Assembly: GCA_937873555.1 (NCBI GenBank)
Contig: CALMWN010000410.1
Coordinates: 1-45,813, forward strand
Reading direction: 5' to 3'
From: an uncultured Clostridia bacterium
GTDB taxonomy: Bacteria > Bacillota > Clostridia > Acetivibrionales > CALMWN01
DNA: 45,813 bases
Shown: one piece after another, positions 3,614 to 45,813 of the stretch
Numbering within the stretch: position 1 is the first letter of the stretch
Layout of the letters: each line of letters opens with the position of its first letter
Translations under genes and position numbers: made by a program
The notes under the pieces: generated by a model
The model's input: the letters and a program-made list of their open reading frames with translations, nothing else
What the model was told of the DNA's origin: nothing
Database searches by the model: none

Positions 3614-3892
3614 TGAAACTAATCAGTATTCTCAATTCACCAAGGAAATTTGATATAAGAAATTATAATCAGAAGAACAGTAATGGTGTAAGTTGAGAAC
3701 ATTACAGTGCGGGAAAATAGTTGATAGCTTTAATGACAATTGCACCAAGAGAAAGTAATAACAATTTAATTCCCTATTTCTTATTAACATAGATTTATAA
3801 TTGAGGAAGTTATTTTGCAAACATAAGTCATACTTCATTATTAAAAGTGCTTAACTGCATATACTTAGAATGATTTGATAAGGGAGGCTTCT

Positions 3893-8841: not shown

Positions 8842-9238
8842 ATGCCTATTTAGGGGGAGAAGAGAGAAAGATTTTGGAGTTTCCGAAGAATCAAAATTGT
8901 ACAGAAAACGTTAGTTGCAGACATTTTAGTATGATTAGCAATATCAAAGAGATATAGCATAATCAAAATAAGTTATTATTTTGAAACTAACAAGTATAGA
9001 TAAGTATAGAAAACTATTTTGAAAAAGTTTCAAAGAATTAATTCTGATGCTTAATATTCTGTATAATGAGTAATTTTTGAACCACCTAGTATTCATCTAT
9101 GTGTATAGGTGTTAAATGTTCATAGCTCATAAAATCTTAGGATAACTAAACGATTTTTTTCTCTGTGAAGAATATAATTTAAATATATTTTACATAATGT
9201 AAAGACACTATAAAAATTAAAGCTTAGAGGTGAAATTA

Positions 9239-10231
9239 ATGCAAAATACAACATTTCTTGTTACAAACAAATGCAATTTGTTCTGTTATCATTGTTTTTC
9301 AAATTCTGGACAAGTAATTGAAAATGAATTATCTTTTGGTGATAAACTGAAAGCAGTAGATGTACTAAAACAACTGGGGACAAAAAGATTAGTGTTTAGT
9401 GGTGGGGAACCTTTGCTTTATGAAAATATATTCAGCCTGATTTCGTATGCAAAATCTAAGGAACTAAAGGTTTCATTGTTAACTAATGCAACAAAGCTTG
9501 ATTACAACAAAATAATAAAGCTTAAGGGACTAGGGATTTCAAGTTTAGCTATAAGTATTTATTCTAGAGATATTTTAAGATATGATGAAAATAACTATTT
9601 GAAATATCTTGTTACAGTTAAAAGCGCTACCAGACTTCTAACTGATGAAAAAGTAAAGTTTAAAATAACTATCCCAGTTACATCGAGAAATTCCGAATTT
9701 GTGATAAATATTATAAAAGAATTTCAAACATTAAATATTACTCCTAAAAAAATAAGATTATTTATTGTTACTCCTGTTGGGAAATGTTGCGAAAATTTAG
9801 AATTAAGTCCGTCCCATTCGATCTGGTTAAATACAATAGCAAAAGTTAAAAGTCAGTGTAAAGAAACTGGTTATGATATATACTACGAAGAAAATTATAC
9901 ATCAAATACTGATATTTATTGTGGATGTCAAATTAAAGAATATTCTTATGCTCATGATAACGATTTTGCAGACCCGCATGTAGATGCAAATGGAGATATA
10001 TATTTATGCGGGTTACTACTTAGAAATAAAAAATATCTTATTGGAAATATAAACGAATGTAACATTATGGAGATTAAAAAAAACATTCACTATCAAGCAG
10101 AATGTGTTAAAAGAGTGGAATCAGGTAAAATTGATGGCGATTTTTGTATGGCATTAAATAGAGAAGTTCCAAATAAAAAATATAAGACAAAATTAGTATG
10201 TCCAATTGTTTACAATTCTAATAGTTTGTAA
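9239..10231 (+). CDS. radical SAM enzyme with SPASM/twitch-like Cys-rich C-terminus
   Basis: CNLFCYHC (CX3CX2C), SGGEPLLY, then CGC...GDIYLCG (G-x4-C) and further Cys residues. Start set at the ATG at 9239 behind AGAGG. Confidence 0.8.
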   Translation: MQNTTFLVTNKCNLFCYHCFSNSGQVIENELSFGDKLKAVDVLKQLGTKRLVFSGGEPLLYENIFSLISYAKSKELKVSLLTNATKLDYNKIIKLKGLGISSLAISIYSRDILRYDENNYLKYLVTVKSATRLLTDEKVKFKITIPVTSRNSEFVINIIKEFQTLNITPKKIRLFIVTPVGKCCENLELSPSHSIWLNTIAKVKSQCKETGYDIYYEENYTSNTDIYCGCQIKEYSYAHDNDFADPHVDANGDIYLCGLLLRNKKYLIGNINECNIMEIKKNIHYQAECVKRVESGKIDGDFCMALNREVPNKKYKTKLVCPIVYNSNSL

Positions 10232-10265: not shown

Positions 10266-11468
10266 CACCTGACTAAAACAAAATAAAACTATGAGATATG
10301 AAGATATTCAAGATTTAGGGGGGCTATATGAACGTTGTTTCTAAAATATTGAACAAATTTGATGAACAAGAAAAATTTAAATTAAATGTATCTATCTTTG
10401 ATTATAGTATAGAGATATTTAGCACAAGTCAAGAAGCTCTAAATTATTTAAAAGAATTATTTTACCCGGATAATACTAATTGCCTATCTCAAAATAAAGT
10501 GTTTTTAGGGAAGAGAGATTTACTTATTAAAAATATAAATATGGATGAAAGTGAACTTAAAGATATAATGCATAATATTATAATAAGTTGGATTTATTTA
10601 GGAATAGTTCATCCAATAAAAACTGCAGAAGTTAAAAAATATATATATAATTCTTGGCAAGCATACATACAGTCCAATAAAGATAAACATTCTAACCCTT
10701 ACATACTTTTCAAAAGAGAAAATGAAATAATTATCATAACGACTAAAGGTTTTAATAATTATAAATTGCTTTCCTGGATAGTACGAGAAATTGCTGGGCG
10801 CAGATTAGAGAATAATGGGTATTCCATTTTTCATGCAGGCGCAGTCAATATAAATGGCAAAGGAGTTGCAATTTTTGGTAATTCTGGTGCAGGAAAAACT
10901 ACTTTAGCTTTAGGTCTATGTAAATATGAAGGTGCAAAATATATTTCTAGCGACAGACTTTATATTAAGAACAACGATATTAATAATTGTTTAGAATCTA
11001 CATCATTTAGTTTTCCTATACGTATAAACTATGGAACTTTATTAACACTTCAAGAAATGAATAATTACGAAAAATGGAATTTGCAAACACCAGTTCCTGG
11101 CGAAGATACTACTTGGAAACAATTTGATGGTAAAGATAAGCTTGAGATTACACCTTATGAGCTCGAACAAAAATTATTATTACAAGTTAGCGCTAAAACA
11201 AACATTGATATTGTAATATTTTTGAATTTATTAACTAACTCAAATATGAACGAGTATATTTATGAGACTAATTCTGAACTTTTAGAGACAAATTGCTGGA
11301 CACCAACTGATCCATCATTCGCATATGATTGGCTGTCACAACGCAATATTTCTGATGAGTTACTTTTACATAGCTCAAAGAAGATCATTAATAGTCTAAT
11401 GAATTTAACAAATATTAAAGTTAAATATTCATTTTTACATTTCAGAGATTTATGTAAAGAAATAGCTA
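10266..11468. repeat. direct repeat copy 1 (1203 bp) containing the kinase-like gene
   Basis: Offset of exactly 2976 bp to 13242..14444. The encoded proteins are identical over 380 aa and the nucleotides matched wherever I spot-checked. Confidence 0.85.
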
Positions 11469-11479
11469 GATTGACCTGA
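10328..11479 (+). CDS. HPr-kinase-fold P-loop protein, copy 1 (last codons replaced by IS sequence)
   Basis: FHAGAVNINGKGVAIFGNSGAGKTTLALGL...SSDRLYI resembles the HPr kinase/phosphorylase C-terminal domain. The native C-terminus is cut 6 codons before the stop by the IS at 11469. Confidence 0.65.
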   Translation: MNVVSKILNKFDEQEKFKLNVSIFDYSIEIFSTSQEALNYLKELFYPDNTNCLSQNKVFLGKRDLLIKNINMDESELKDIMHNIIISWIYLGIVHPIKTAEVKKYIYNSWQAYIQSNKDKHSNPYILFKRENEIIIITTKGFNNYKLLSWIVREIAGRRLENNGYSIFHAGAVNINGKGVAIFGNSGAGKTTLALGLCKYEGAKYISSDRLYIKNNDINNCLESTSFSFPIRINYGTLLTLQEMNNYEKWNLQTPVPGEDTTWKQFDGKDKLEITPYELEQKLLLQVSAKTNIDIVIFLNLLTNSNMNEYIYETNSELLETNCWTPTDPSFAYDWLSQRNISDELLLHSSKKIINSLMNLTNIKVKYSFLHFRDLCKEIARLT

Positions 11480-13241: not shown

Positions 13242-14444
13242 CACCTGACTAAAACAAAATAAAACTATGAGATATGAAGATATTCAAGATTTAGGGGGGC
13301 TATATGAACGTTGTTTCTAAAATATTGAACAAATTTGATGAACAAGAAAAATTTAAATTAAATGTATCTATCTTTGATTATAGTATAGAGATATTTAGCA
13401 CAAGTCAAGAAGCTCTAAATTATTTAAAAGAATTATTTTACCCGGATAATACTAATTGCCTATCTCAAAATAAAGTGTTTTTAGGGAAGAGAGATTTACT
13501 TATTAAAAATATAAATATGGATGAAAGTGAACTTAAAGATATAATGCATAATATTATAATAAGTTGGATTTATTTAGGAATAGTTCATCCAATAAAAACT
13601 GCAGAAGTTAAAAAATATATATATAATTCTTGGCAAGCATACATACAGTCCAATAAAGATAAACATTCTAACCCTTACATACTTTTCAAAAGAGAAAATG
13701 AAATAATTATCATAACGACTAAAGGTTTTAATAATTATAAATTGCTTTCCTGGATAGTACGAGAAATTGCTGGGCGCAGATTAGAGAATAATGGGTATTC
13801 CATTTTTCATGCAGGCGCAGTCAATATAAATGGCAAAGGAGTTGCAATTTTTGGTAATTCTGGTGCAGGAAAAACTACTTTAGCTTTAGGTCTATGTAAA
13901 TATGAAGGTGCAAAATATATTTCTAGCGACAGACTTTATATTAAGAACAACGATATTAATAATTGTTTAGAATCTACATCATTTAGTTTTCCTATACGTA
14001 TAAACTATGGAACTTTATTAACACTTCAAGAAATGAATAATTACGAAAAATGGAATTTGCAAACACCAGTTCCTGGCGAAGATACTACTTGGAAACAATT
14101 TGATGGTAAAGATAAGCTTGAGATTACACCTTATGAGCTCGAACAAAAATTATTATTACAAGTTAGCGCTAAAACAAACATTGATATTGTAATATTTTTG
14201 AATTTATTAACTAACTCAAATATGAACGAGTATATTTATGAGACTAATTCTGAACTTTTAGAGACAAATTGCTGGACACCAACTGATCCATCATTCGCAT
14301 ATGATTGGCTGTCACAACGCAATATTTCTGATGAGTTACTTTTACATAGCTCAAAGAAGATCATTAATAGTCTAATGAATTTAACAAATATTAAAGTTAA
14401 ATATTCATTTTTACATTTCAGAGATTTATGTAAAGAAATAGCTA
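13242..14444. repeat. direct repeat copy 2 (1203 bp)
   Basis: See copy 1. Identity ends at the position equivalent to the IS insertion point in copy 1. Confidence 0.85.
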
Positions 14445-14464
14445 ACATTACCAGAAGTTTATAA
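13304..14464 (+). CDS. HPr-kinase-fold P-loop protein, copy 2 (intact)
   Basis: 386 aa, identical to copy 1 up to ...CKEIA, then the native end NITRSL. AGGGGGG lies 5 nt upstream of the ATG. Confidence 0.7.
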   Translation: MNVVSKILNKFDEQEKFKLNVSIFDYSIEIFSTSQEALNYLKELFYPDNTNCLSQNKVFLGKRDLLIKNINMDESELKDIMHNIIISWIYLGIVHPIKTAEVKKYIYNSWQAYIQSNKDKHSNPYILFKRENEIIIITTKGFNNYKLLSWIVREIAGRRLENNGYSIFHAGAVNINGKGVAIFGNSGAGKTTLALGLCKYEGAKYISSDRLYIKNNDINNCLESTSFSFPIRINYGTLLTLQEMNNYEKWNLQTPVPGEDTTWKQFDGKDKLEITPYELEQKLLLQVSAKTNIDIVIFLNLLTNSNMNEYIYETNSELLETNCWTPTDPSFAYDWLSQRNISDELLLHSSKKIINSLMNLTNIKVKYSFLHFRDLCKEIANITRSL

Positions 14465-20175: not shown

Positions 20176-20271
20176 GCTGTTAGTAGAAATTTACAAAGTC
20201 AAGTAGGTATAATGTAATAAAAGTGGTTTAGATTAAGTATACAGTTTAAATACATGGAGGCTTTAAGTAGT

Positions 20272-21840
20272 ATGAACAATGAAAAGTATTACATTACAAC
20301 TGCAATCGCATATGCCTCACGTAAACCTCATATTGGAAATACCTATGAGGTTGTGTTAGCTGATGCTATTGCACGGTTCAATCGTCTTATTGGTTATGAT
20401 GTCTTTTTTTTGACTGGAACTGACGAGCATGGTCAAAAAATACAAAAGCAGGCAGAAATACAAGGTATTTCACCGCAAGAGCACGTGGATATAATTACTG
20501 ATGAGATACGCAGAATTTGGGACCTTATGAATATAAGTTATGACAAATTTATTAGGACTACCGACATCTATCACAAAGAAACAGTACAAAAAATTTTTAA
20601 AAAACTCTATGAGCAAGGCGATATATATCAATCTTCATATGAGGGTTGGTATTGTATACCTTGCGAATCCTTTTTTACAGATACTCAGATTACCAATAAT
20701 AAATGCCCAGATTGCGGGGGTATTGTTGAGAAATCCAGCGAAGAGGCCTATTTTTTTAAAATAGGTAAATACGCTAATCGACTTGAGAAATACATCGAAC
20801 GAAACCCCAATTTTATACAACCAGAGTCTCGTAAAAATGAAATAATTAGAAACTTTATACAAGTAGGACTACAGGATTTATGCGTATCTCGCACCTCCTT
20901 TTCATGGGGTATTCCAGTGAGTTTTGATAGCAAGCATATAATATATGTTTGGATTGATGCTTTGTCTAATTATATTACTGCGCTCGATTACAACCCCGAT
21001 GGTGAAAGTGGAGACCTCTTTAATAAATATTGGCCAGCAAATGTACATTTAATTGGTAAGGATATTCTACGTTTTCATACTATTTACTGGCCTATAATGC
21101 TTATGGCTCTTAATATTGAATTACCCAAGCAGATATTTGGTCATCCATGGCTCCTATATGGTACTGAAAAGATGTCTAAGTCTAAATGTAACGTAATATA
21201 TGCAGAGGATTTGGTCAGACACTTCGGTGTTGATGCTGTTCGTTATTACTTGTTGCATGAGATGCCCTTTGCACAGGATGGAACAATAACATATGAACTT
21301 TTAATAAGCCGAATTAATTCAGATCTTGCCAACATCCTTGGTAATCTTGTGAATCGTTCTATCGCAATGGTAGAAAAATATTTTTGTGGTATAATTCCTT
21401 TTTGTGGGGCTCTAGAAAGTATTGATAAGGAACTTATTGAATTTGCTCTTTCAGTTCCTTCAAAAGTTGAGAAGCAAATGGAACATCTACATGTATCTGA
21501 TGCACTTGATGAAATATGGTCACTGCTTAGACGAACTAATAAATATATCGATGAAACCGCACCTTGGCTACTTGGCAAAGAAGAAAACAAAAAGGAACGT
21601 CTGGGTACAGTACTTTACAATTTGCTTGAATGTATACGATTTGCCTCAGTATTAATTTTACCATTTTTACCCGAAACGGCTCAAAATATTCAGACACAAA
21701 TAAATGCCAAAAATATTACATGGGAATCACTTTCGAATTTTGTTGGCACTATTTCTGGCAAAGAAGTTAACAGGGAAAAACCTCTATTTAATCGCATTGA
21801 CGAAAAGGAAAAGATAATAGAAATTGAACTGAACCAATAA
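20272..21840 (+). CDS. metG: methionine--tRNA ligase, short form without C-terminal tRNA-binding domain
   Basis: KYYITTAIAYASRKPHIGN (HIGH-type), a CIPC...CPDCGG zinc knuckle, KMSKS and an anticodon-binding helical C-terminus. Start set at the second ATG (the ORF track starts at 20254). Confidence 0.9.
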   Translation: MNNEKYYITTAIAYASRKPHIGNTYEVVLADAIARFNRLIGYDVFFLTGTDEHGQKIQKQAEIQGISPQEHVDIITDEIRRIWDLMNISYDKFIRTTDIYHKETVQKIFKKLYEQGDIYQSSYEGWYCIPCESFFTDTQITNNKCPDCGGIVEKSSEEAYFFKIGKYANRLEKYIERNPNFIQPESRKNEIIRNFIQVGLQDLCVSRTSFSWGIPVSFDSKHIIYVWIDALSNYITALDYNPDGESGDLFNKYWPANVHLIGKDILRFHTIYWPIMLMALNIELPKQIFGHPWLLYGTEKMSKSKCNVIYAEDLVRHFGVDAVRYYLLHEMPFAQDGTITYELLISRINSDLANILGNLVNRSIAMVEKYFCGIIPFCGALESIDKELIEFALSVPSKVEKQMEHLHVSDALDEIWSLLRRTNKYIDETAPWLLGKEENKKERLGTVLYNLLECIRFASVLILPFLPETAQNIQTQINAKNITWESLSNFVGTISGKEVNREKPLFNRIDEKEKIIEIELNQ

Positions 21841-34599: not shown

Positions 34600-35604
34600 A
34601 TGAACCAGCTATTATTAAAGGAAATTCCTGTATATGTGCAGGAATTTCTAAGACACATTCAAGTTAAAAAAGGAGCTTCTTTGAAAACCGTTGAGGATTA
34701 CTTTTATGAATTACGGCTGTTTTTGAGGCTTTATAAAAAGAATAAAAGTCATCTGCCTTCAGAATCCGGACTTGATAACATAGACATCCTTGACATTCAA
34801 TTGAAAGACTTGGAAAACTTAAAAACAACCGAGCTTACAGAATATTTAGCATATATAAAACCTTTAAAACAAGATAATCCGAAAGCCAATAAAAAATCAA
34901 TTACTAACGATGCTGACAGAGCTCCTGCTAAAAGAACAAAATCAAAGCGTCTGGCCTGTTTGAAATCATTCTTTAATTATTTGGAAATAACTGCAGAGTT
35001 GATAACCCGAAATCCTACACGGAAGGAAAGCCACATAAAGTTAGATAAGAGGGAAGTAAAATACCTGACCGACGAAGAGAGCATCAAGCTTCTGAGTGTA
35101 ATAAAAGGTGAGCACCATCAAAGGGACTATGCAATAATAACATTGTTTTTAGTATGTGCCTTGCGATTGTCTGAATTGGTAGGAATTAATTTGAGCCATA
35201 TCCAGAACAATGTTTTAACAGTAATAGGGAAGGGAGACAAGGAGAGAAAAATACCTCTTTCAGCATCATGTACCAGGGCAATAGATTCTTATAAAAGAGT
35301 ACGTCCCAAAAGCACGCAAGATAAGGATGCACTATTTCTTAGTGAAAGGCTACAAAGAATCAGTAAAAAAACAGTACAGTATATGGTCAAGAAATATATT
35401 GCCGCTGCCGGCCTGGATGTGAAAAAATATTCAACCCATAAACTTCGTCACACTGCAGCAACTCTAATGTATCTGCATGGCAATAAAGACCTCCGGGCCC
35501 TACAGGAACTTCTTGGTCATGAGGATATTTCAACAACTCAGGTGTATACGCATATAAGGGATAAGGAAAAGAGAGATCTGATTAACAGTAACCCTTTGGC
35601 ATGA
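34600..35604 (+). CDS. tyrosine recombinase (XerC/XerD-like or integrase)
   Basis: ALRLSELVGI...HKLRHTAATLMY...LLGHEDISTTQVYTH. AAGGAG lies 7 nt upstream. Confidence 0.85.
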   Translation: MNQLLLKEIPVYVQEFLRHIQVKKGASLKTVEDYFYELRLFLRLYKKNKSHLPSESGLDNIDILDIQLKDLENLKTTELTEYLAYIKPLKQDNPKANKKSITNDADRAPAKRTKSKRLACLKSFFNYLEITAELITRNPTRKESHIKLDKREVKYLTDEESIKLLSVIKGEHHQRDYAIITLFLVCALRLSELVGINLSHIQNNVLTVIGKGDKERKIPLSASCTRAIDSYKRVRPKSTQDKDALFLSERLQRISKKTVQYMVKKYIAAAGLDVKKYSTHKLRHTAATLMYLHGNKDLRALQELLGHEDISTTQVYTHIRDKEKRDLINSNPLA

Positions 35605-35905: not shown

Positions 35906-37456
35906 TTACCAATCAATCCCTAATTCGATTAACATATCATCTTTTTTTATCTCGGTAACATTTCTGTCGATATAATCATTTTTGTTTTTAAATATAGTAT
36001 TATTTTTTATATAATACGTTTTTTTGCTTGATAAAATTATGTCTACCTCGGTTGCTTTCCAGAGCAGTTGATAATCATTATTTTTTATTAATCTTAATAG
36101 CTCCTTTTTACTAAGTTCTCTATCAAAACATTGATTCTTAATACTTGCCATAGACCTATAATACTTGCCTTCATATTTACAGAATATTAGTTGTTTTGAA
36201 GTAAGAGCATCAACTATTTTCATATCACCAAGTTCTATATCAAATACTTTTTCACAATTTGCTTTAACCGCGTGAATAGTGTTTTCAACTGGTTCTTCTT
36301 CAATTAACTGTCCGTTTTTAAATATTTGATAATAGTCTGCAAAATAGACGTACTCAGTACCTAATTCCGTATTAATCTTGAAAAAGGAGCAATTCAACTT
36401 ACGATACTGATTTATTAGTGCGGATATGGAACGAAAATCATAATGGCTTGTATTACTTGTTAGAAATTTACCGAGATCAGCCATAGAGTCATATATTTTA
36501 TCCCTAAAGAGTAGTTTTGTTTTTTCCTTATATTTCTCCTTAACCTCAGATTCCTTGTTTAACTCATCGATTTGGGCTTGAATTTCATTTTTGGACAGCT
36601 TTAAGTAATCATCCTCGAACCGCCATATGTCTCTTTTGTAATGCTCTTTTTTCCCCTTACATACATCACTAATGTATCCATAGCTGCGCTTTGAATAATA
36701 ATACTGTTCAGCGGCCTCTAACATAGAATTGTATCTTACCCCTGTATTTAGGCACACTACAGGTTTCGACAAATGAAGTTTTGCAGATTCATTCATCAAC
36801 TTTAAATGTTCTGGAGATATTACTTTTCCTTTATTAGCATCCGATATTTTCTTTTTCTGCTCATCTGTCGGGCTCCATGAACCTTTATTATTTTTTCTAA
36901 CTTCTCTAGCTTTTTCCATTGGTGTTTTTTTAAATACTTGATCTTCTAAATCCTGAGAGACGGTTGAATCAATTTTATTACCCTGATTATGATTTATTAT
37001 TTCTTTAAACCTATCTAATCTTTCCTTTGTTAATGTTGTGGCAGCTCTCCAATATTCTTCGTATAATTTATTTAGATCATCAAAGCAAGTGTCATCATAG
37101 GGTATTCCAAAATTAATTTCACGGTTATTTTTTAGACCTCCATTCGTAAAATTACTCGATCCTACTATTATATATAATTCATCAAACACAAAAATTTTAG
37201 AATGAAAATTCTGCTCTGTAAAAAATTTTATTGTGATATTTGGATTATTAATTATCTTTTCCAATGCAAAATATGATGTAGCAATGCATAATCGTACAAC
37301 CAATCTTATTTTACTGTTATTATCAATCAACTTATTGAGAAATTCATTTTCGGTGAAAAATGGGGCTGCAATTGATACACGCGGGCAGTTACTATAATTC
37401 AATAAAGTATTTATGAGATAATCTTCTTTATCTATTGAATTGGTAAACAATTCCAT
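35906..37456 (-). CDS. PLD-family (HKD) nuclease fused to NUMOD-type homing-endonuclease DNA-binding modules
   Basis: The N-terminus has HSKIFVFDELYIIVGSSNFT (HxK..D..GSxN). The middle has SPTDEQKKKISDANKGK and SPEHLKLMNESAK (NUMOD3-like), then KPVVCLNTGVRYNSMLEAAEQ...ISDVCKGKKEHYKRDIWRFED (NUMOD1/IENR-like). Further degenerate repeats follow. Confidence 0.65.
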   Translation of the reverse strand: MELFTNSIDKEDYLINTLLNYSNCPRVSIAAPFFTENEFLNKLIDNNSKIRLVVRLCIATSYFALEKIINNPNITIKFFTEQNFHSKIFVFDELYIIVGSSNFTNGGLKNNREINFGIPYDDTCFDDLNKLYEEYWRAATTLTKERLDRFKEIINHNQGNKIDSTVSQDLEDQVFKKTPMEKAREVRKNNKGSWSPTDEQKKKISDANKGKVISPEHLKLMNESAKLHLSKPVVCLNTGVRYNSMLEAAEQYYYSKRSYGYISDVCKGKKEHYKRDIWRFEDDYLKLSKNEIQAQIDELNKESEVKEKYKEKTKLLFRDKIYDSMADLGKFLTSNTSHYDFRSISALINQYRKLNCSFFKINTELGTEYVYFADYYQIFKNGQLIEEEPVENTIHAVKANCEKVFDIELGDMKIVDALTSKQLIFCKYEGKYYRSMASIKNQCFDRELSKKELLRLIKNNDYQLLWKATEVDIILSSKKTYYIKNNTIFKNKNDYIDRNVTEIKKDDMLIELGIDW

Positions 37457-37609
37457 CGTTTCACCTACCCTACAGCCTTAATTTATGTTAAATATTATAA
37501 CAGAAAATGGATTGAAATTTAACCTTGTTGGAGTAGTACCAGCATGCTGATACTTATCTACACTTGTTATAAATAATGATACAATGGTTGGATGTTAAAA
37601 TGTTGCACT

Positions 37610-38023
37610 TTATATCAACTTATTATATATAAACGTAAATCTGAGCCACTCAAAAATTTGAATTAACTCTCGGACTTCATAATTAGGCAGTCGTTTTTTG
37701 TTAGGGTTATTAACTTCTTGATTATGTACATGAAAGGGTTCCGTGACTGTCTGATCTTTTTTATCCGGATGCGATTCGCTATGAAACCTTATATGATCCT
37801 CAGCTCCGTTACAGCGAAACAAATCATAGAAGTATATATCAATTTTGCCGTCTTTAATATATTCCGTAATGTAAAATTTGGAACCATCAATCAAAGTATA
37901 CGTTTTTCTTCTTATAGAATAACTAGAAGGTAATCCAGTCTTATCAAAGTCTTTTTCGTTCTGGATAATATCCTTAAATCTCGCACTAATAAGAGTGAAA
38001 TTCGAAGGCGGCAAATTAGTCAT
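37610..38023 (-). CDS. TumE/DUF6516-like putative toxin
   Basis: The pattern HIRFHSESHPDKKDQTVTEPFHVH...ELIQIFEWL resembles the TumE family as I recall it. The start overlaps the upstream gene by 8 nt. Confidence 0.35.
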   Translation of the reverse strand: MTNLPPSNFTLISARFKDIIQNEKDFDKTGLPSSYSIRRKTYTLIDGSKFYITEYIKDGKIDIYFYDLFRCNGAEDHIRFHSESHPDKKDQTVTEPFHVHNQEVNNPNKKRLPNYEVRELIQIFEWLRFTFIYNKLI

Positions 38024-38654
38024 TCTTCACTCTTTCCAATAGATACTTCCATTCTTCTTCATCACGTTTTTGCTCAGAATTTTTAATATATATTTTCATA
38101 AGAGTGTCTTCATATTTTCCATTGTACTTTTCCTCAAAAAACTTTATTGTTTGCTTAAATGCAGCTGCTTCTTCTTCCAAAGACTGATTTACATACTTCA
38201 ATTGTTCCGATTTCCAAGATTCAACAACAGCCCTTATTGGAATAAGTTCCGTAGTTGCGGATACCCAAAGCACATTATCTGAAATCTTTATTTTCTGATT
38301 TTTTGCTGTTCTTTCAGTTCCAATAAACCGCTTATTATCAATCCAATTATTAATTGTCATTATAGATACACCGAAAAACTTTGCAAGCTCTCCTGTAGTA
38401 TAAGTCTTCACAATAGCCCTGGTCTGTAAATCAAGCATCGCCTTAAGAATCGTATGCATATTAACCTTAAACATGTTTTTGTCAGTAAACATTCTTTCAT
38501 CCAAAGCTATCTTCGTCCCAGGGTAAGTTAAATGTACAAAATTAGACAGGATCTTTACAAATAACTTTCCGTCCGAATTCTTATAAAAAGTATCAGTATA
38601 ATAGTCAACATTCTCAAGAAAATGTTCTTTTTCAACAGATGTAATCATAAACAT
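38016..38654 (-). CDS. HTH DNA-binding protein (excisionase-type HTH), putative regulator or antitoxin
   Basis: YTTGELAKFFGVSIMTINNWIDNKRF. Strong GGAGGTGAGGAG upstream. Confidence 0.5.
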   Translation of the reverse strand: MFMITSVEKEHFLENVDYYTDTFYKNSDGKLFVKILSNFVHLTYPGTKIALDERMFTDKNMFKVNMHTILKAMLDLQTRAIVKTYTTGELAKFFGVSIMTINNWIDNKRFIGTERTAKNQKIKISDNVLWVSATTELIPIRAVVESWKSEQLKYVNQSLEEEAAAFKQTIKFFEEKYNGKYEDTLMKIYIKNSEQKRDEEEWKYLLERVKND

Positions 38655-38841
38655 CACTCCTCACCTCCAATTCTAACACAACTTAAACCCAACTTCAAGG
38701 CACTTAAAAGATACATAAATATAATATGCACATTTTATACGAATTGATATACAGATGCAAAATATTTCCAGGATCGCTTGATTTGTACATTTACACAAAG
38801 ATTCAACAATGCAATATCGATGTTTAGCGGGTTTTACAGCC

Positions 38842-39023
38842 AATGTTGATATGTTTGTGTCCCGGATTCCATGACAGAAAGTTATCAACATTATATTTTT
38901 AGGACACAAAGTTCGCAACATTGTAACCGATCGTTGATATCTTTGTGTCCTGGGCGCATAGTTGCACATTGAATTAATCAATGTTGATAGCATTGTGTCC
39001 TGAATGTTGATATGTTTGTGTCA
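38842..39023. repeat. array of five 21-bp iteron-like repeats AATGTTGATAnnnTTGTGTCC
   Basis: Direct copies at 38842, 38931, 38980 and 39003, and an inverted copy at 38901-38922. A half-site AATGTTGATAAC lies inverted at 38881-38892. Confidence 0.8.
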
Positions 39024-39096
39024 TCCGACATGATTCGTAGCCCGAGGGAAAATACTTATTATATAGATAATAATCGAATAGTTTTATTTTGTTGCA

Positions 39097-39136
39097 ACAA
39101 AAAAGCAGCCACGAAGACAGATCTTCGCAGCTGCTT
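39097..39136 (-). terminator. rho-independent terminator
   Basis: The GCAGCCACGAAG/CTTCGCAGCTGC hairpin is followed on the minus strand by TTTTTTGTTG. Downstream of 39233..39508. Confidence 0.6.
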
Positions 39137-39232
39137 TAGAAAGTATTTAATACTTAGATTTTTATTGAATATTTATAAAATATTTGGTAAAATTTAATTG
39201 AGGGCAAACGATGCCTTGGGTTTAGTTGATAA

Positions 39233-39508
39233 TTATTTAATGTATATGCGGCAAGAAGCGCGTCGGAGCTTTTTACCGCATTTTACTTTTACAGAAAACG
39301 ATTCATCTTTTTCTTTTGATGTCTTTATCATTATGTAGGAATCCGCGTTCTCTGCCTCTGGTACTTCCGTTTTTCGCTGAATTTTATGTAGTACAATATT
39401 GGATACAACTCCGGATATTATCTTCGCGATAACTTCTCTTGTTGTATACAATAAAAAGCTTACTACAGAAGGTAGTAAATAAATAAGCCATACAAGTTGC
39501 TCCTTCAT
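39233..39508 (-). CDS. small membrane-anchored protein, unknown function
   Basis: AAGGAGG lies 6 nt upstream. N-terminal TM segment LVWLIYLLPSVVSFLLY. Confidence 0.6.
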   Translation of the reverse strand: MKEQLVWLIYLLPSVVSFLLYTTREVIAKIISGVVSNIVLHKIQRKTEVPEAENADSYIMIKTSKEKDESFSVKVKCGKKLRRASCRIYIK

Positions 39509-39685
39509 ACAACGTCCTCCTTTGTTCTTTAATCTTAGATAAGAAACCCACCGGCATCGTCACGCCCTCATATTAAGTGGTCTTATAAGATATCAAAGGA
39601 GGAAGGAATTTGCTACATATAAGCTGCGTTCGGGCTAACCCCTAACCCTTTATTTTAATAAACCTTTACTTTCAAGAATAGCAAG

Positions 39686-39713
39686 AAAAAACCATGTTGC
39701 TAGAAACATGGTT
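39686..39713 (-). terminator. rho-independent terminator
   Basis: 9-bp stem AACCATGTT/AACATGGTT followed by a T-run on the minus strand. Confidence 0.6.
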
Positions 39714-39763
39714 ATGAAATAAACCGGATACTGTTGTGGAGATAGAAACATATTATCAACTCC

Positions 39764-40312
39764 TTAAACCAATAGAGGTTCTTTTATAGGGTTTAATGAA
39801 CAAATAAAATTATCTTTCTGCTTCCCATAATAAAAGCTTTCTAAGCGTAAGCTCCTGAATTTAGAGAAATACATAACCTGATCACTTTCTGGAAATGTTT
39901 TTATACAAGTCTCAAATTCATCAAGTTGTGTAGAATCCAACAGGATCTCTTCCCCTTCTTTCAGTACATCCCAAATTTTCTTCGGAGATGTGACACCGGT
40001 TATCAAAAGGCGAAATTCCATAATCAATCTATTGTCTGCATTCCCGACAGGCTTTGCGTACCATTTGATACTATTATTATCAAATATGTAGTGACTGGCC
40101 CTGTCAAAAGACAACCAGTTTCCCTTGCCTCCATTTGCCTTGGAAAACTCATTATCTTTGTCTTCAAAAATTGCAGTATAGACTCCAACTTTCTTGGTAA
40201 TGGTAACCTCCCGTATTTGACCAACACATTGAGGTTTTTGATGGTCTATGACTTTAAAAGTCACACCTTTTCTTAGAGCCTTTTTCATCTGCTCCAGATT
40301 ATTAATTTTCAT
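39764..40312 (-). CDS. hypothetical protein
   Basis: 182 aa. GGAGG lies 9 nt upstream. No recognisable motif. Confidence 0.6.
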   Translation of the reverse strand: MKINNLEQMKKALRKGVTFKVIDHQKPQCVGQIREVTITKKVGVYTAIFEDKDNEFSKANGGKGNWLSFDRASHYIFDNNSIKWYAKPVGNADNRLIMEFRLLITGVTSPKKIWDVLKEGEEILLDSTQLDEFETCIKTFPESDQVMYFSKFRSLRLESFYYGKQKDNFICSLNPIKEPLLV

Positions 40313-40352
40313 TCAACTCATCCTCCTTATAATTTAATTTCACAGAATACTG

Positions 40353-40859
40353 CTAAAAACACTCTTCCTTCTGCCTTGCTCCTATTTCTGCGTACCAGGG
40401 CTGAATCCAATCAAACCATTCCTCGTCGCTTTTCTCAAGCGATAATTGGCCCAGATCCGCAGATTCATACCTGTATAGCTTCAATTCCCCACTTAATTTC
40501 GCCCTCAGCAAGTAAAACCATTTAAGCTCATACATAATGGACAATTTGTCAGCATAACATAGTTTGCTTGGCTTTACCAGATGACGTTTGGCATAATTTC
40601 TACTATGGTACAAGCAAAGGTAGAAATATTCACAGCCAAACCACTTATTAGCCATCAGCGCAGCTTTTTCAGGATGATTACTTCCAACCTTCCCATCCAT
40701 ATCCGGCGAACCCCAATAGCCCCAGTCATGAATGATTATACATATCAGTTCTTTAAAACTCGGTCTTCCATAAAGCCATTTCCATGCCATATAAACCGTT
40801 ATTGGGTGCCAAATAAACTGATGTACACCAATCAGTAAGCTCCTGGTTCCTACTTTCAC
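40353..40859 (-). CDS. hypothetical protein, possibly an HD-type metal-dependent hydrolase
   Basis: GTG start behind GAGGAGGGG. The H...IIHDWGYWG...NHPE...YHSR spacing is reminiscent of HD-domain ligands (weak). Confidence 0.5.
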   Translation of the reverse strand: MKVGTRSLLIGVHQFIWHPITVYMAWKWLYGRPSFKELICIIIHDWGYWGSPDMDGKVGSNHPEKAALMANKWFGCEYFYLCLYHSRNYAKRHLVKPSKLCYADKLSIMYELKWFYLLRAKLSGELKLYRYESADLGQLSLEKSDEEWFDWIQPWYAEIGARQKEECF

Positions 40860-40917
40860 TTATACCCCTCCTCTCTACAAAATGTTTTGAATCGTTATTC
40901 TATTGAATTATTGCAAC

Positions 40918-40946
40918 AAAAAAACCGCTAACGAATGTTAACGGTT
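40918..40946 (-). terminator. rho-independent terminator inside a 5' leader
   Basis: AACCGTTAAC-attc-GTTAGCGGTT followed by T7 on the minus strand. It lies between the promoter at 41039-41067 and the gene start at 40859. Confidence 0.65.
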
Positions 40947-41031
40947 ATATCCTATTTAATCTATCTGCCCATGAATCCCAGGGACTTTAAATATAAAGGT
41001 ATTGAAATACCATTTAGTAAAAAACAATTAA
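40947..41031 (-). promoter_or_regulatory. conserved leader RNA element, copy A
   Basis: The core 40966-41025 is shared with 45719-45776. On the minus strand it reads TTTTTTACYAAATG, a variable segment, then TATATTAAAGTCCCTGGNATTCATGGGCA. Confidence 0.55.
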
Positions 41032-41038
41032 TATAGTG

Positions 41039-41067
41039 ATTATACTATAACTAGAAAATTTTTTCAA
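41039..41067 (-). promoter_or_regulatory. sigma-A promoter driving leader copy A
   Basis: On the minus strand: TTGAAA (41062-41067), 17-nt spacer, TATAAT (41039-41044). Confidence 0.6.
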
Positions 41068-41404
41068 CAAAAAAGGTAGGGAGTAGAAGTCATAATCGAC
41101 CTCTCCCCCTACCTGCAAGCAAACACATATATTATTTGAAATTAACTTTGGATTAAACTTATACCTGCTTCAAATAGATATCTCTATAATTAATTATACT
41201 ACCGCTCATGAATTATCAATTCTGCCACCATACTCCGGCATATCTTCATATAGCTCACAACGGGCATCTACACCTTGCCAATACCAATCTGGCAATTTCT
41301 CAGCGTCCATATATAATCCTCCTTCATGTTGTGTATTTAGCATTATTTGTGGACATTACTTTAATATATACAAATAATGTTAAAAGAATTACAAGCCTAT
41401 ATCT

Positions 41405-41836
41405 TCATACCTCAACTCCGAAGTTCTCCTTCAGGTATTTCTTGCACTCCTCGACATCAACCTCTACCTTAACCTCTGCATCTGAATCTTCACTCTCATC
41501 ATCTTCGGCCCAAAATCTCCAGTCTATCTTAAGTTCCGGTACTGAAGATTCTTCAAGCTGAATAGGTATCAATACAGGTAATAACACCTCTTGCAGATAC
41601 TCCTGATCTGTACACTTGAATACGAATCCATACGAAGTATTCAAAAAGAATTGGTCGAGTTCTGTAGTAATAGTTATTTCAGGCACATATTGGGTAGCCT
41701 GTATTATCCCTGCAATTTGTTCCGGATTTTTCTCAATCACCAATGCCGGTGCACGATTACCATTACTATCATAGATATAAACTAATAATTTTTCATCCCT
41801 CACTAAACTCATCCTCCTTATAATTTGATTAATCAT
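41405..41836 (-). CDS. hypothetical protein with acidic C-terminal region
   Basis: The ATG overlaps the stop of the radical-SAM gene (ATGA). Contains WAEDDESEDSDAEVKVEVDVEE. Confidence 0.6.
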   Translation of the reverse strand: MINQIIRRMSLVRDEKLLVYIYDSNGNRAPALVIEKNPEQIAGIIQATQYVPEITITTELDQFFLNTSYGFVFKCTDQEYLQEVLLPVLIPIQLEESSVPELKIDWRFWAEDDESEDSDAEVKVEVDVEECKKYLKENFGVEV

Positions 41837-42489
41837 AGGCCTCTAGCGCAGTATTCGCATTCCGGATTTCGTCTGAGCTCTTCCATGATTGCAAACACTG
41901 ATTCCTTTGACTGCGGTTCGGCTTCCTCCCTGTGCAGCTGGATAACAAACTTTCTGCAACCGGCTACCGACTTACTGATCTCATGTATGTCTTCCCCTGT
42001 CAGTCCTGGAACAAGAGTAGTACGGAATTCATGGTCTACACCACTTTCAGATATGAGCTTGATTGATTTTTCTATCTTTCTGGTATCCACACTGCAGCCG
42101 ACAATCTCCTCATACCTGTGAATGGGCGCCTTGATGTCCATAGCCACGTAGTCCAGAACCGGGAGGACTTCTTCAAGAACTTCCGGATTGGTACCATTTG
42201 TGTCCAGTTTTACCATAAAGCCCAGCATTTTAAGCCTTATTACAAAAGTGTAAAGGTCTTTATAAATAGTTGGTTCACCGCCGCTAATACATATAGCATC
42301 AAGCTTTCCAATCCTAGACTTAAGGAAGCTGAAAACCTCGTCCTGAGATATAAGTTGAGTGCCTAAGGTTTCCTTACTGAAGCAATAAGCGCAATTTAAG
42401 TTGCACCCCTTCGTATATACAACTCCACATATCTTGCCAGGATAGTCCTCATTGCTCGTTTTAGTAATAGCTGAATAATACATTATCAA
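41833..42489 (-). CDS. NrdG-type (class III RNR activase-like) radical SAM protein
   Basis: DYPGKICGVVYTKGCNLNCAYCFS, ISGGEPTIY, KLDTNGTNPEVLEEV, DYVAMDIKAP, EFRTTLVPGL. This is the pattern of the about 230-aa NrdG2-type activases. Confidence 0.75.
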   Translation of the reverse strand: MIMYYSAITKTSNEDYPGKICGVVYTKGCNLNCAYCFSKETLGTQLISQDEVFSFLKSRIGKLDAICISGGEPTIYKDLYTFVIRLKMLGFMVKLDTNGTNPEVLEEVLPVLDYVAMDIKAPIHRYEEIVGCSVDTRKIEKSIKLISESGVDHEFRTTLVPGLTGEDIHEISKSVAGCRKFVIQLHREEAEPQSKESVFAIMEELRRNPECEYCARGL

Positions 42490-42582
42490 TATCCCCTTTT
42501 CGTCTATTTACTTAGTTGTTTATAATTTTACGAAAGGCATGTTTTTGGCTTCATACCGTGCATATGGTCATACTTGCTGCAA

Positions 42583-42969
42583 TTACTTTTTGCACTCGCA
42601 TTTTATGTCTTTATTGATTGGCTCCCCAAGCAGAGACTTTAAAAGTTTACCTGCTACAAGATCCTCCCAATAAAGCCCATCAAGCCTTATTTCCCTTAAT
42701 GTTTCGCATTGCTTATATTCAGCAATCACTACATTGTACAGGTCCAATCTCTCATCAAGTTCTACTGTAAACATATAGCCATGTACTACAGGAAGTTCGG
42801 TACCCGTGACAGGATCCATCTCCATCCTGATAGTGGTATACTTGACGATTAAGTTGCCTTTATGCTGCTGGTATGAAACCTTATAACCTTTAATACCAGC
42901 TCCATCACCCGAATAACCGTTTAAATACCTCCATGTTTTTGCTGCTTCTTGTATTTGATACGCATCCAT
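42583..42969 (-). CDS. hypothetical protein
   Basis: GGGAGG SD upstream. 128 aa, no motif recognised. Confidence 0.6.
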   Translation of the reverse strand: MDAYQIQEAAKTWRYLNGYSGDGAGIKGYKVSYQQHKGNLIVKYTTIRMEMDPVTGTELPVVHGYMFTVELDERLDLYNVVIAEYKQCETLREIRLDGLYWEDLVAGKLLKSLLGEPINKDIKCECKK

Positions 42970-43002
42970 AAATAAACATCCTCCCTTTAACCAAATTAGG
43001 CT

Positions 43003-43440
43003 TTAGTCCATGATGATATTCCCTTTTCTGTCCAGAATCCTGATATCATCAATACTGCCGCATTTCATAATAAGCTTCCTCATCTCCATTTCACTAACAC
43101 TATGGTAATACAAAAATATGGAATATATCTTGTCACTGTCCCCGAAGCTGACTCTGATATCCCAGGTAGAATCATAAAAAGGAGTGTAGGCAACACATTT
43201 CAATTCATGGATAGTTGCCTCTTTTTCAGTACCCGCTTTCATCTTCATACCATATAGGAGTGACAAATCACCCTTCAGGGATTCATTCAAGTATCCATAA
43301 TTTGCGGAATAGTACTCAACCAGCTCATTAAGTAAACTGATTACAGTAAAATCCTTTCTCTCAATAGCCATATTTATCGCCTTTGAGATGTTTTCATAAG
43401 TCACATTCCTTATAAAATTCATAGCCTCGCTGCTCAACAT
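43003..43440 (-). CDS. hypothetical protein
   Basis: ATG at 43440 lies 7 nt after GGGGG. 145 aa. Confidence 0.6.
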   Translation of the reverse strand: MLSSEAMNFIRNVTYENISKAINMAIERKDFTVISLLNELVEYYSANYGYLNESLKGDLSLLYGMKMKAGTEKEATIHELKCVAYTPFYDSTWDIRVSFGDSDKIYSIFLYYHSVSEMEMRKLIMKCGSIDDIRILDRKGNIIMD

Positions 43441-43477
43441 CAAAATACCCCCATTTGCACTGATAATTGGTATAAAT

Positions 43478-43515
43478 ACACAGGGGGATAAATAACTTTA
43501 TTTATCCCCCTGTGT
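43478..43515. repeat. perfect 18-bp inverted repeat (38-bp palindrome)
   Basis: ACACAGGGGGATAAATAA-ct-TTATTTATCCCCCTGTGT, intergenic between two co-directional minus-strand genes. Confidence 0.85.
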
Positions 43516-43524
43516 GTGTCTTTT

Positions 43525-44451
43525 TCAGCAATTAGCAAACTGCTCCTTAACTGCTGAAACCTTTGTATTGACTAATTCATAGTTTTCAATGCAGGCATCG
43601 CAATATCCAAGATTCCTTTGGCTCTCATCATTGGACATTTCACCACCGCAGTCTTTGCAGGCGCTGAATTTGGCTGCATCAAGAAACCCCTTAGTGCTTT
43701 TGTAATAGAAATTATGTATCGTCGGATACCCCCGGCTTAAAATTGCTTTTTCGCAAAGCTGGAAGGTATCGTCATAAATTTTTCCGAGTAGGCTGACAAA
43801 ATCCGACTCGATAAAATCCATTGCCAAGATTTCTAACGTCTCGCACAAATCAAGGTCCTTATAATGCTCGCCCACTATCAAGCTTTTCTCTATAAAAGGC
43901 TTGTCCCCATAAGAATTCAGGACTTCACTGTACTGAGGATACAAGTTTCGCAGCAACATAGCCGTGGTATGATCCACCCCAAATCTGGCATAATGGCAGC
44001 AGTTACATTTAAAAAGTGTGCACCGTCGGTCATTAACCCATTGCTCTCCAATTGCTTTGGCATGGATTATGGTCTTATTCTTTTCCTGGCACTCAACCTT
44101 GTAGTTGTATATGCCGTTATGGTACAAAAAAACCGGTTCATGTTGTATGCCCGGATAAGTAGGAAGCGTATGCTTGCTATATTCAGTTGTACCAAAACCC
44201 GTTCTCGACTCTATGGGGATGGGAACATTGAAAATAATGTCAGTAATACCCGCGTATTTCTTATCAAACGAATAGATAGTATCAGGATTATTGAGCATCC
44301 TTTCAAGACTGTCATCATATTCCCCGTCATAATACCCTTTATAACCGAGCTCCTTAATTTTCAAGAGATCTTCCCGGCTAAAAAAGCATTCATCAATGAC
44401 ACCAATTTTAATTTCTTCCCCACTTGTCGGGTGTCTTACGATTTCACCCAT
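43525..44451 (-). CDS. Cys-rich hypothetical protein
   Basis: GGGAGG SD upstream. 308 aa with the clusters CNCCHY and CKDCGG...CDAC. Confidence 0.65.
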   Translation of the reverse strand: MGEIVRHPTSGEEIKIGVIDECFFSREDLLKIKELGYKGYYDGEYDDSLERMLNNPDTIYSFDKKYAGITDIIFNVPIPIESRTGFGTTEYSKHTLPTYPGIQHEPVFLYHNGIYNYKVECQEKNKTIIHAKAIGEQWVNDRRCTLFKCNCCHYARFGVDHTTAMLLRNLYPQYSEVLNSYGDKPFIEKSLIVGEHYKDLDLCETLEILAMDFIESDFVSLLGKIYDDTFQLCEKAILSRGYPTIHNFYYKSTKGFLDAAKFSACKDCGGEMSNDESQRNLGYCDACIENYELVNTKVSAVKEQFANC

Positions 44452-44499
44452 AATTAAATCAACCTCCCTTTGATTACAAAATTAAACCATTAATAACTT

Positions 44500-44889
44500 T
44501 CAGATTGCGCTTGAAAATTTTAGTCTTGAAGCAAATCTTGAAGCAATCTTTTTGATAATCCAAAAGTCCACGGGCATGATTTTCAGCCCTGGGACAGTAT
44601 AGACATTAAAATTGTTGAAGTCCATATTACAGTACTCGGCAATTTTCTCATGCAAAACGTCTTCCTCACCCACTCTGCAGGAAATGATACCGACTTTGTA
44701 ATAATTACTTCCGAACAATTTCCAGACTTCGTATTCCATGACATTTACAGGGCTTAAGTTGCATGTGAAAAGAAGATTCCCTGATTCATAATATTCATGG
44801 CAAGGCCTGGCGCTGTCAAGAAGCGCAGCAACAGTTTTTTTCACTGCCTCAGAAGGTATTAAAGCTGGTTTCTCCGCTAATGCGTACAT
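44500..44889 (-). CDS. hypothetical protein, paralog of 44903..45292
   Basis: Shares C.EYYE.G.LL....S......EYEVWK.F...YY with the neighbouring gene. Confidence 0.6.
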   Translation of the reverse strand: MYALAEKPALIPSEAVKKTVAALLDSARPCHEYYESGNLLFTCNLSPVNVMEYEVWKLFGSNYYKVGIISCRVGEEDVLHEKIAEYCNMDFNNFNVYTVPGLKIMPVDFWIIKKIASRFASRLKFSSAI

Positions 44890-44902
44890 TCATCACCACT
44901 CC

Positions 44903-45292
44903 TTAGTATTCATCTAAAATTTTTTTGATTATTATTTTCTTTTCCTCCCACTGCTTCATAGGCATTTCTTTTAATATGCCTATGCCTTCGCAGTATTTTC
45001 CAAGCTTATTAAAATCAAATTTATCCTCGTTGTATACCAGTAGTAAATATTCCAGTCTATCCAAGTCCATCCAAGATACTGTAAGTCTCTCAAACCTGTA
45101 AAAAGTATTACTGAATTTCTTCCATACTTCATACTCTTGAGCTCCATTCTCGGACGTAGAGATATTAATCAGTAGAAGCTCTCCCACTTCAAAATATTCT
45201 CCTGGACAAAAGGTCCTTTTTGTTAGCATCTGCGAAAGATCCTTCAGCTTCTCCTCTGTTGTGTCCCCTTTTGGTTCCGTCTTAACGTGCAT
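44903..45292 (-). CDS. hypothetical protein, paralog of 44500..44889
   Basis: AAGGAGGG lies 9 nt upstream of the ATG at 45292. Confidence 0.6.
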   Translation of the reverse strand: MHVKTEPKGDTTEEKLKDLSQMLTKRTFCPGEYFEVGELLLINISTSENGAQEYEVWKKFSNTFYRFERLTVSWMDLDRLEYLLLVYNEDKFDFNKLGKYCEGIGILKEMPMKQWEEKKIIIKKILDEY

Positions 45293-45382
45293 AATCAAAT
45301 CACCCTCCTTTGAAAAAAATTGAAAATATGATATAATAAAAAACAGGAAAGATGCTTTTCAGCACCAATCCTGTTTTTCTGG

Positions 45383-45523
45383 TTAGGGGCGGCTATTTCG
45401 GGATAGCCGTCTTTTGTTTTTCCGACATCTGCGTACTCTTTGTGAGAAGAAGCTGTACAAAGCAACAAGCCCTGCAGCTATCCCAACAATTTTCGCTAAT
45501 GCGGACAACACCAAAGACAACAT
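45383..45523 (-). CDS. 46-aa single-TM peptide with strongly basic tail
   Basis: AAGGAGGTG lies 5 nt upstream of the internal ATG of the 78-aa ORF. MLSLVLSALAKIVGIAAGLVALYSFF then SQRVRRCRKNKRRLSRNSRP. Confidence 0.6.
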   Translation of the reverse strand: MLSLVLSALAKIVGIAAGLVALYSFFSQRVRRCRKNKRRLSRNSRP

Positions 45524-45621
45524 ACCGTTCACCTCCTTTCGGTGACTCAGGCAGCCATATATTGCTATATAACTGCCCTTATCATCGAAATAAAGATAAT
45601 AACCGGCACCACAAACCAAAT

Positions 45622-45660
45622 ATAAAAAGCCGCAGGCTCAAAGAACTTGCGGCTTTTTTG
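45622..45660. terminator. bidirectional-looking rho-independent terminator
   Basis: 8-bp stem AAGCCGCA/TGCGGCTT flanked by A5 and T6. Confidence 0.55.
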
Positions 45661-45661
45661 C

Positions 45662-45695
45662 AAATAAAAAACCCATCAAACAGATGTCTGACGGG
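45662..45695 (-). terminator. rho-independent terminator after leader copy B
   Basis: On the minus strand: CCCGTCA...TGATGGG (7 bp, one G-U pair) followed by TTTTTTATTT. Confidence 0.55.
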
Positions 45696-45796
45696 ATCAA
45701 TCTCCATAAAACCAAATATGCCCATGAATACCAGGGACTTTAATATACTTGCGTTAACACACATTTGGTAAAAAACTTAAACATAGACACATTATA
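45696..45796 (-). promoter_or_regulatory. conserved leader RNA element, copy B, with its -10 box
   Basis: Core 45719-45776 is homologous to copy A. TATAAT lies at 45791-45796 on the minus strand. The -35 would fall beyond the window end. Confidence 0.5.
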
Positions 45797-45813
45797 TAAT
45801 ACTTTTATAAAAA

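Follow-up and report, generated by a model that had tools for sequence, protein, structure and literature searches.

Activases of the NrdG2 family (TIGR02495) are radical-S-adenosylmethionine (radical-SAM) proteins with the class III ribonucleotide reductase (RNR) NrdD as partner, and linkage to nrdD is usual for this family, but not obligatory. The best solved relative is PflA, the pyruvate formate-lyase (PFL) activating enzyme (PFL-AE; PDB 3C8F/3CB8). Auxiliary nucleotide genes are also carried by phages (T4-type nrdD-nrdG, phage thyX), which normally pair nrdD with nrdG (e.g. MT835493.1). According to a recent review, the specificity of glycyl-radical enzyme (GRE) activases is poorly understood (PMC13450708). 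Here, we analyzed an activase gene located at 41833..42483 on the minus strand of a contig from an uncultured Clostridia bacterium (CALMWN010000410.1), where it is embedded in an operon of small genes (41405-45298) on a mobile element. The whole contig of 45,813 bp is referred to as the window. Two sister contigs, L001 (ENA) and L002 (JGI), are 100% identical to it over 13,981 and 6,207 bp, respectively, and L001 extends 3,810 bp past the window end. Judged from sequence, the object is best described as a divergent variant of a known enzyme, borne by a mobile element and placed in a mosaic accessory operon.

Like NrdG2, the protein shows a full-length match above the family cut-off, ~50% identity to nrdD-adjacent copies and the motifs CX3CX2C, GGEP, and D-x-P-G. 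Unlike NrdG2, it has no nrdD within 49.6 kb, is located on a mobile element, and forms the longest branch; an Asn is replaced by Ser, the preceding His by Phe, and 9 residues are deleted at the C-terminus relative to the family. PflA (E 1.9e-6) shares the minimal activase architecture without a ferredoxin insert, and its Asp16 corresponds to Asp13 here. It is nevertheless distant (TIGR02493, 60.5 bits compared to a cut-off of 231.75), Asn38 is exchanged for Ser36, and no PFL- or GrcA-type protein is encoded near the activase. As in the phage systems, deoxynucleoside triphosphate (dNTP) supply genes, here ThyX and the RNR activase, are found on a mobile element. In contrast to those systems, the activase stands alone, on an integrative, ArdC-bearing element with no phage structural genes in view.

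Family membership of the activase and absence of NrdD

The protein matched the NCBIfam model TIGR02495 (NrdG2) with 173.7 bits (cut-off 131.15) over model positions 3-190 of 193, and Pfam Radical_SAM at 1.3e-22. The remaining radical-SAM families (PflA, YjjW, QueE, viperin, MoaA, and others) scored far below their own cut-offs. With 119 relatives, the protein could be aligned end to end. The cluster motif C27-x3-C31-x2-C34 and the residues G68-G69-E70-P71 (invariant columns common to 17 relatives) are retained, as are Asp13 (Asp16 of PFL-AE) and the N-terminal D-x-P-G loop. A search of 5.8 billion proteins returned identical copies on three contigs only, and the next best matches were at most 53% identical. 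The closest relatives share ~50% identity, and the three that were looked up (P0002, P0007, and P0019) each directly follow a PF13597 NrdD gene. Similarly, NrdD is found ~0.7 kb from NrdG2 on one fecal contig labelled as phage. The original prediction had placed an NrdG-type activase at 41833..42489, and the near full-length match above the cut-off (216 aa, or 218 aa from 42489) bears this out. By a sound and clear sequence match, the gene is an NrdG2-type class III RNR activase, descended from an nrdD-nrdG locus.

When three NrdD proteins were used as tblastn queries, the window together with L001 (49.6 kb) gave noise only (best E 0.43) and no NrdD fragment. No GRE was found in Pfam scans of the large open reading frames (ORFs) of the window, of which only the 886-aa TnsAB is long enough for NrdD; the earlier statement that neither NrdD nor another GRE is encoded nearby thus holds. 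The NrdD partners end in C..CPEC..C..SR[VI]VGYIRPV, and the glycine (Gly) loop SR[VI]VGYIRPV was present in all three NrdDs read. Among the operon proteins, Pfam matches to Gly_radical, PFL-like, or NRDD were absent, and local alignments of the NrdD C-terminal domain with these proteins were not above shuffles (z -1.35 to 1.58). The sole R..G[YFW] motif is RNLGY, inside the C-terminal Cys pair of a 308-aa neighbor, and would be expected in 21% of shuffles. Both RNLGY in this Zn-ribbon and VVHGY in a 128-aa neighbor were rejected as glycyl-radical loops, being at chance level. A lone gene for an NrdD-type radical peptide was sought in a six-frame scan, which was negative.

Divergence of the activase and its possible substrates

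The best reading, held with slightly less than even confidence, is that of a captured auxiliary activase acting in trans on a presumed NrdD of the host. It is favored because of the family membership, the selection pattern described below, and the retained catalytic and Asp anchor residues. For activity, substrate identity, and benefit to the element, we infer the following course. An integrative element of an anaerobic Bacillota-type host would have picked up an NrdG2-type activase from a cellular nrdD-nrdG locus, and the activase would then have evolved fast on the element, within an accessory operon headed by a promoter-leader-terminator cassette. The protein would bind a [4Fe-4S] cluster through C27, C31, and C34, cleave SAM, and take the C-alpha hydrogen from the glycine in the C-terminal loop of host NrdD. 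The active fraction of the anaerobic reductase would be raised during replication or transfer of the element, with ThyX as a presumed companion auxiliary nucleotide-supply function on the same element.

Action in trans is plausible because an unlinked NrdG2 exists, ThyX is present on the element, and the Gly loop is nearly the same in the three NrdDs. The unlinked example is found in MT837067.1 ('Bacteriophage sp.', L069, 8.5 kb), in which no NrdD is encoded in the 2.4 kb upstream and 5.5 kb downstream of NrdG2. Its further genes encode YlmH, a class I tRNA synthetase, a TadA-type deaminase, RsmF, and a PcsB-like protein. Despite the phage label, this record looks like a fragment of a bacterial chromosome, which suggests that NrdG2 can work unlinked from nrdD. 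Cross-activation by GRE activases follows the conservation of the Gly loop (PMC13450708).

In a tree of 120 sequences (quick IQ-TREE search), the activase was placed in an unresolved polytomy and had the longest terminal branch of all (1.57 compared to a median of 0.13). It keeps 67 of the 86 columns with at least 80% conservation (78%), as many as P0080 and P0084, the most divergent of the bona fide members, whereas agreement with the consensus in variable columns is only 34%; other divergent family members show a like pattern. This difference between conserved and variable columns argues for continued purifying selection rather than decay.

Seven replacements were found in the activase alone (I3Y, Q7T, F23Y, H35F, N36S, L39T, and F184H). 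At the third cluster Cys, CHN is changed to CFS, and the Asn two residues further on, which all 119 relatives, both fecal homologs (CHN and CQN), and PFL-AE have in common, is Ser36 here. In the alignment with PFL-AE, Ser36 lies opposite Asn38 and Asp13 opposite Asp16. Asp16 and Asn38 of PFL-AE hold the Gly734 loop, and Asn38 is hydrogen-bonded to Gly734 and to Ala736 in the substrate loop (PMC9326890) and to the GGE loop as well (PMC10267522). With respect to the glycine-loop anchor residues of GRE activases, the Asp is kept and the Asn is not. The loss of this Asn gives the only concrete hint of altered substrate handling, and the substrate may have changed. Moreover, a single sequence version exists, in the three identical contigs, and the subclade is therefore a singleton. 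The long branch, the lost Asn with the change at which it hints, and the singleton status all count against service to the host NrdD.

A changed substrate, with the same radical-SAM chemistry directed at a target other than NrdD, is on the unlikely side, yet has to be reckoned with. One of the ORFans encoded alongside (128, 145, or 308 aa), a protein of the host such as a defence factor or a further GRE, or a small molecule could serve as target, and the result would be an element-specific conflict or counter-defence function. The CFS in place of CHN, with the otherwise invariant loop-anchoring Asn lost and none of the 119 relatives alike, agrees with such a change, as do the longest branch in the family tree and the position of the accessory operon downstream of the ArdC anti-restriction gene and other mobile-element conflict-type genes. 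The GC content at third codon positions (GC3) is raised in common in the operon genes (0.37-0.46 compared to 0.27 in methionyl-tRNA synthetase, MetRS), which is compatible with joint arrival. However, the neighbors contain no glycyl-radical-like domain by the alignments and motif counts given above, and the two neighbor families with relatives both occur elsewhere without an NrdG2-type radical-SAM gene. Ser is still able to donate a hydrogen bond, the remaining activase hallmarks are kept, and a singleton subclade offers no comparative support. Rather improbable is a repurposed activase with a remodelled Gly-loop anchor that would generate a radical on, or modify, a non-RNR protein such as a co-encoded ORFan or a host defence or metabolic protein. 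The original prediction had left the choice between the host NrdD in trans and a new partner system; the former remains the best reading, and the latter found no support.

It is improbable that the gene is a relic, i.e. a passenger of a captured nrdDG locus that lost nrdD, is functionless for the element, and drifts. Such a passenger would fit the missing partner gene, the very long branch combined with the loss of an invariant residue, and the singleton status in public data, but the reading frame is intact and preceded by a Shine-Dalgarno site, the catalytic motifs are all kept, and no remnant of nrdD was detected. The retention of 78% of conserved compared to 34% of variable columns is, furthermore, not expected from neutral drift to ~50% identity. 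Membership in another known radical-SAM system (viperin, a QueE set, a maturase of peptides made on the ribosome and modified after translation (RiPPs), or the AAA+/DUF1257/DUF2997/rSAM module) is barely credible and already contradicted. It could be suspected from matches to PADLOC pVip (1.6e-15) and the PHROG 'QueE-like' (4.2e-14) and from the ORFs of 46 and 34 aa that flank the operon; both matches are, however, weak and generic for radical-SAM proteins. Prokaryotic viperin (NF038283, 43.7 bits, cut-off 180) and QueE (TIGR03963, 44.1 bits, cut-off 260.1) were far below their cut-offs. A 7-deazaguanine DNA-modification set was rejected for lack of a FolE, QueC, QueD, or DpdA gene, and a RiPP maturase for lack of a SPASM or RRE domain. 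The AAA+/DUF1257/DUF2997/rSAM module had no such Pfam match among the operon proteins at E <= 0.1, and no AAA+ gene is present in the operon or upstream in L001.

Layout of the operon and its neighboring genes

The features of the operon, in its direction of reading, and the integrase of the element are:

45620..45813, minus strand: head of the operon, comprising a promoter, a conserved leader (TATTAAAGTCCCTGGTATTCATGGGCA), and a pair of terminator hairpins, from sequence reading; the window ends within this repeated cassette
45383..45523, minus strand: ORF of 46 aa behind a Shine-Dalgarno site, with one hydrophobic helix and a tail rich in Arg/Lys
44903..45292, minus strand: paralog 1, 129 aa from ATG (131 aa from TTG 45298), function not assigned
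44500..44889, minus strand: paralog 2, 129 aa
43525..44451, minus strand: Cys-rich ORFan of 308 aa, with a CKDC...CDAC pair at the C-terminus
43476..43517, minus strand: hairpin with a 17-bp perfect stem between the 308-aa and 145-aa genes (-29.4 kcal/mol, z -6.4)
43003..43440, minus strand: 145-aa ORFan
42583..42969, minus strand: 128-aa ORFan directly upstream of the radical-SAM gene (93-nt gap)
41833..42483, minus strand: NrdG2-family radical-SAM activase, 216 aa (218 aa from 42489)
41405..41803, minus strand: 132-aa acidic-tailed protein with GTG start; ORF open back to ATG 41836 (143 aa)
41206..41310, minus strand: 34-aa ORF preceded by a strong Shine-Dalgarno site (GAAGGAGG); the gene calls of L001 and L002 include it
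41068..41113, minus strand: hairpin and T-run terminating the operon, from sequence reading; the next promoter-leader cassette follows directly
34600-35604: integrase on the mobile element that carries the radical-SAM operon

Within the head cassette, terminator-like sites are located at 45695-45672 and 45639-45627. A second copy of the promoter-leader-terminator cassette is found at ~41067-40923, immediately past the operon terminator, and a scan of the genome contigs with the leader-cassette pattern gave 0 matches. The window and L002 stop at the identical base (45813) inside the repeated cassette, probably because the assemblies broke at the repeat. L001 continues across the cassette (3700-3900), and its SHOCT gene stops ~60 nt before it. 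The 34-aa peptide is acidic and aromatic (MDAEKLPDWYWQGVDARCELYEDMPEYGGRIDNS); together with the 46-aa ORF, which likewise has a Shine-Dalgarno site, the 34-aa ORF brackets the operon.

The spacers between the operon genes are 13, 48, 81, 33, and 93 nt, and the Shine-Dalgarno sites are good for most genes. Behind the hairpin at 43476-43517, in the 81-nt gap, comes a T-run if the plus strand is read, but only a weak U-tract on the strand of the operon. The hairpin may act as a partial terminator or an RNA-stabilising element and split the operon in two. Because of this hairpin, the operon is possibly not one simple transcription unit. Therefore, the proposed single operon with strong Shine-Dalgarno sites and short spacers stands with regard to the sites of most genes, but may be divided as a transcription unit. 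The uncharacterised proteins, given before as seven, were counted as six of at least 128 aa plus the ORFs of 46 and 34 aa. The predicted sizes of the neighboring ORFs were correct, and the two tandem paralogs were confirmed (30% identity, E 3e-10). At E <= 0.1, no operon protein except the radical-SAM protein had a match in Pfam, PHROGs, NCBIfam, or PADLOC.

For the gene downstream of the activase, only a weak AGAGG is found 3 nt upstream of ATG 41836, whereas AAGGAGG lies 9 nt upstream of GTG 41803. The latter is the start in the public gene call (132 aa), agrees with the N-termini of the family, and leaves a gap of 29 nt to the stop of the radical-SAM gene. From these features, the gene most likely starts at GTG 41803, and the translational coupling (ATGA) to a 143-aa protein that had been proposed is doubtful. 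The 143-aa version had no relative in an IMG/VR scan.

The family of the 132-aa protein is unnamed and comprises 122 representative relatives (50% clustering) by exhaustive phmmer; a profile search gave 322. It is found for the most part in Lachnospiraceae, Oscillospiraceae, and other Clostridia, and carries the motifs ENIA.FI and LLPVLIPMQ.GE. A tandem double domain occurs at L045 6833-7708, and fusions to DUF7768, Resolvase, or DUF4240 were observed. The contexts are varied accessory regions of mobile elements, beside a type IV secretion system coupling protein or in arrays of small genes. On a widespread Lachnospiraceae element with three integrases, the family gene is located 14 nt upstream of a PemK/MazF-type toxin gene, and the family could, from this type of context, have an antitoxin-like or toxin-neutralising role. 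The AlphaFold2 (AF2) model of the 132-aa protein reached a mean predicted local distance difference test score (pLDDT) of 82.8 and is thus confident, but its fold gave no significant match in the PDB or BFVD and hence no clue to function.

None of 59 other loci of this family (L009-L067) contained an NrdG2-like gene within ~7 kb. The 54 named-genome loci (627 kb) contained neither an NrdG2-like gene nor any other operon protein; the 182-aa protein of the next operon was present in two of the 54. An NrdG2 hidden Markov model run over the 59 loci gave two weak matches (25-27 bits) to longer, non-NrdG2 radical-SAM proteins. Their genes (L010 7823-8860 and L043 ~5842) have 328-354 codons from stop to stop and lie a few kb away, with a Pfam SPASM match for the one in L010; two such genes are too few to call an association.

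A tblastn search with the concatenated neighbors revealed only distant relatives of paralog 1, on Bacillaceae and Leptolyngbya plasmids, and none of the other neighbors. Those at L007 6974-7387 (pBH-BAT-167) and L008 6812-7357 (p25) share 35-45% identity and belong to extended arrays of hypothetical small genes, all on one strand, close to the replication genes of the Bacillaceae plasmids. Within 7 kb, the annotation of these two inspected regions shows no radical-SAM gene. Both plasmids have a PAPS-reductase-family gene no more than ~1-1.6 kb from the paralog-1 relative.

For the 308-aa protein, no homolog was found among 5.8 billion proteins and none in IMG/VR, and a single-sequence AF2 model, calculated without an alignment, was unusable (pLDDT 34). 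The 128-aa and 145-aa proteins had no relative in phages, plasmids, IMG/VR, or JGI metagenome contigs; these searches were narrower than the one of 5.8 billion proteins, and the ORFan label is less certain for these two. Comparison of the ORFans with PDB sequences gave noise only. A PLS9-PPR match of the 128-aa protein was rejected as a repeat-summing artefact with no significant single stretch.

The neighbor families thus vary freely: the 59 loci contain no NrdG2, the two inspected plasmid regions with paralog-1 relatives have no annotated radical-SAM gene, and no neighbor is glycyl-radical-like. The original prediction had itself named freely varying neighbors beforehand as speaking against functional linkage, and its co-encoded partner system is therefore not supported. 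By sequence comparison, the operon is to be regarded as a mosaic of unrelated, independently distributed small mobile-element genes and ORFans, and not as a multi-part machine.

The mobile element and meaning of the lone activase

Pfam scans of the large window ORFs revealed polysaccharide-synthesis genes, MetRS, IS transposases, three tandem integrases, a Tn7-like TnsAB/TnsC/TniQ set, and one further integrase. On L001, the operon is preceded by genes of one common orientation for a complete ThyX, a DUF7567 protein, an ArdC-N/MPTase anti-restriction protein, and a SHOCT protein, with ThyX ~7 kb upstream of the activase on the same element. Downstream, the operon is followed by two more uncharacterised genes, a helix-turn-helix (HTH) gene, a phospholipase D (PLD)-family nuclease, and an integrase. 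The surroundings are an integrative element with conflict-type cargo. Of the phage-like or integrative and conjugative element-like nature proposed before, the mobile element was substantiated by the integrase at 34600-35604 and the ArdC, SHOCT, DUF7567, and ThyX genes of L001.

The GC3 of the operon genes (41405-45298; 0.37-0.46) exceeds that of the PLD and HTH genes of the element (35906-38657; 0.26-0.31) and of host MetRS (20254-21840; 0.27). This composition marks the operon as foreign and fairly uniform, and its donor probably had a higher GC content. A blastn search of the operon against phages and plasmids gave no match, and an Rfam search of 39000-45813 gave nothing meaningful.

At the left of the window, two radical-SAM/SPASM genes (3875-4993 and 9230-10231, plus strand) lie in a low-GC sugar-metabolism region and are unrelated to the NrdG2 activase. 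They are accompanied by a glycosyltransferase, YdjC, and a methyltransferase-dNK fusion. Two near-identical HPr-kinase-C-like genes (10328-11479 and 13304-14464) are found in the same region.

The activase and three of its neighbors are singletons in public data, and comparative genomics consequently offers no help, which limits the value of the case. The Asn to Ser change is the sole feature of the operon that would repay experiment; at a substrate-anchoring position, this natural replacement amounts to nature's own experiment on GRE activase specificity. If the substrate has changed, the recruitment of a glycyl-radical activase to a non-GRE target would be a rarity, and a non-RNR target would imply a radical-based conflict function on a mobile element. 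If the activase simply serves the host NrdD, it would add a further case to the auxiliary nucleotide-supply genes of mobile elements, and it would follow that an activase alone, without its reductase, can be worth carrying.

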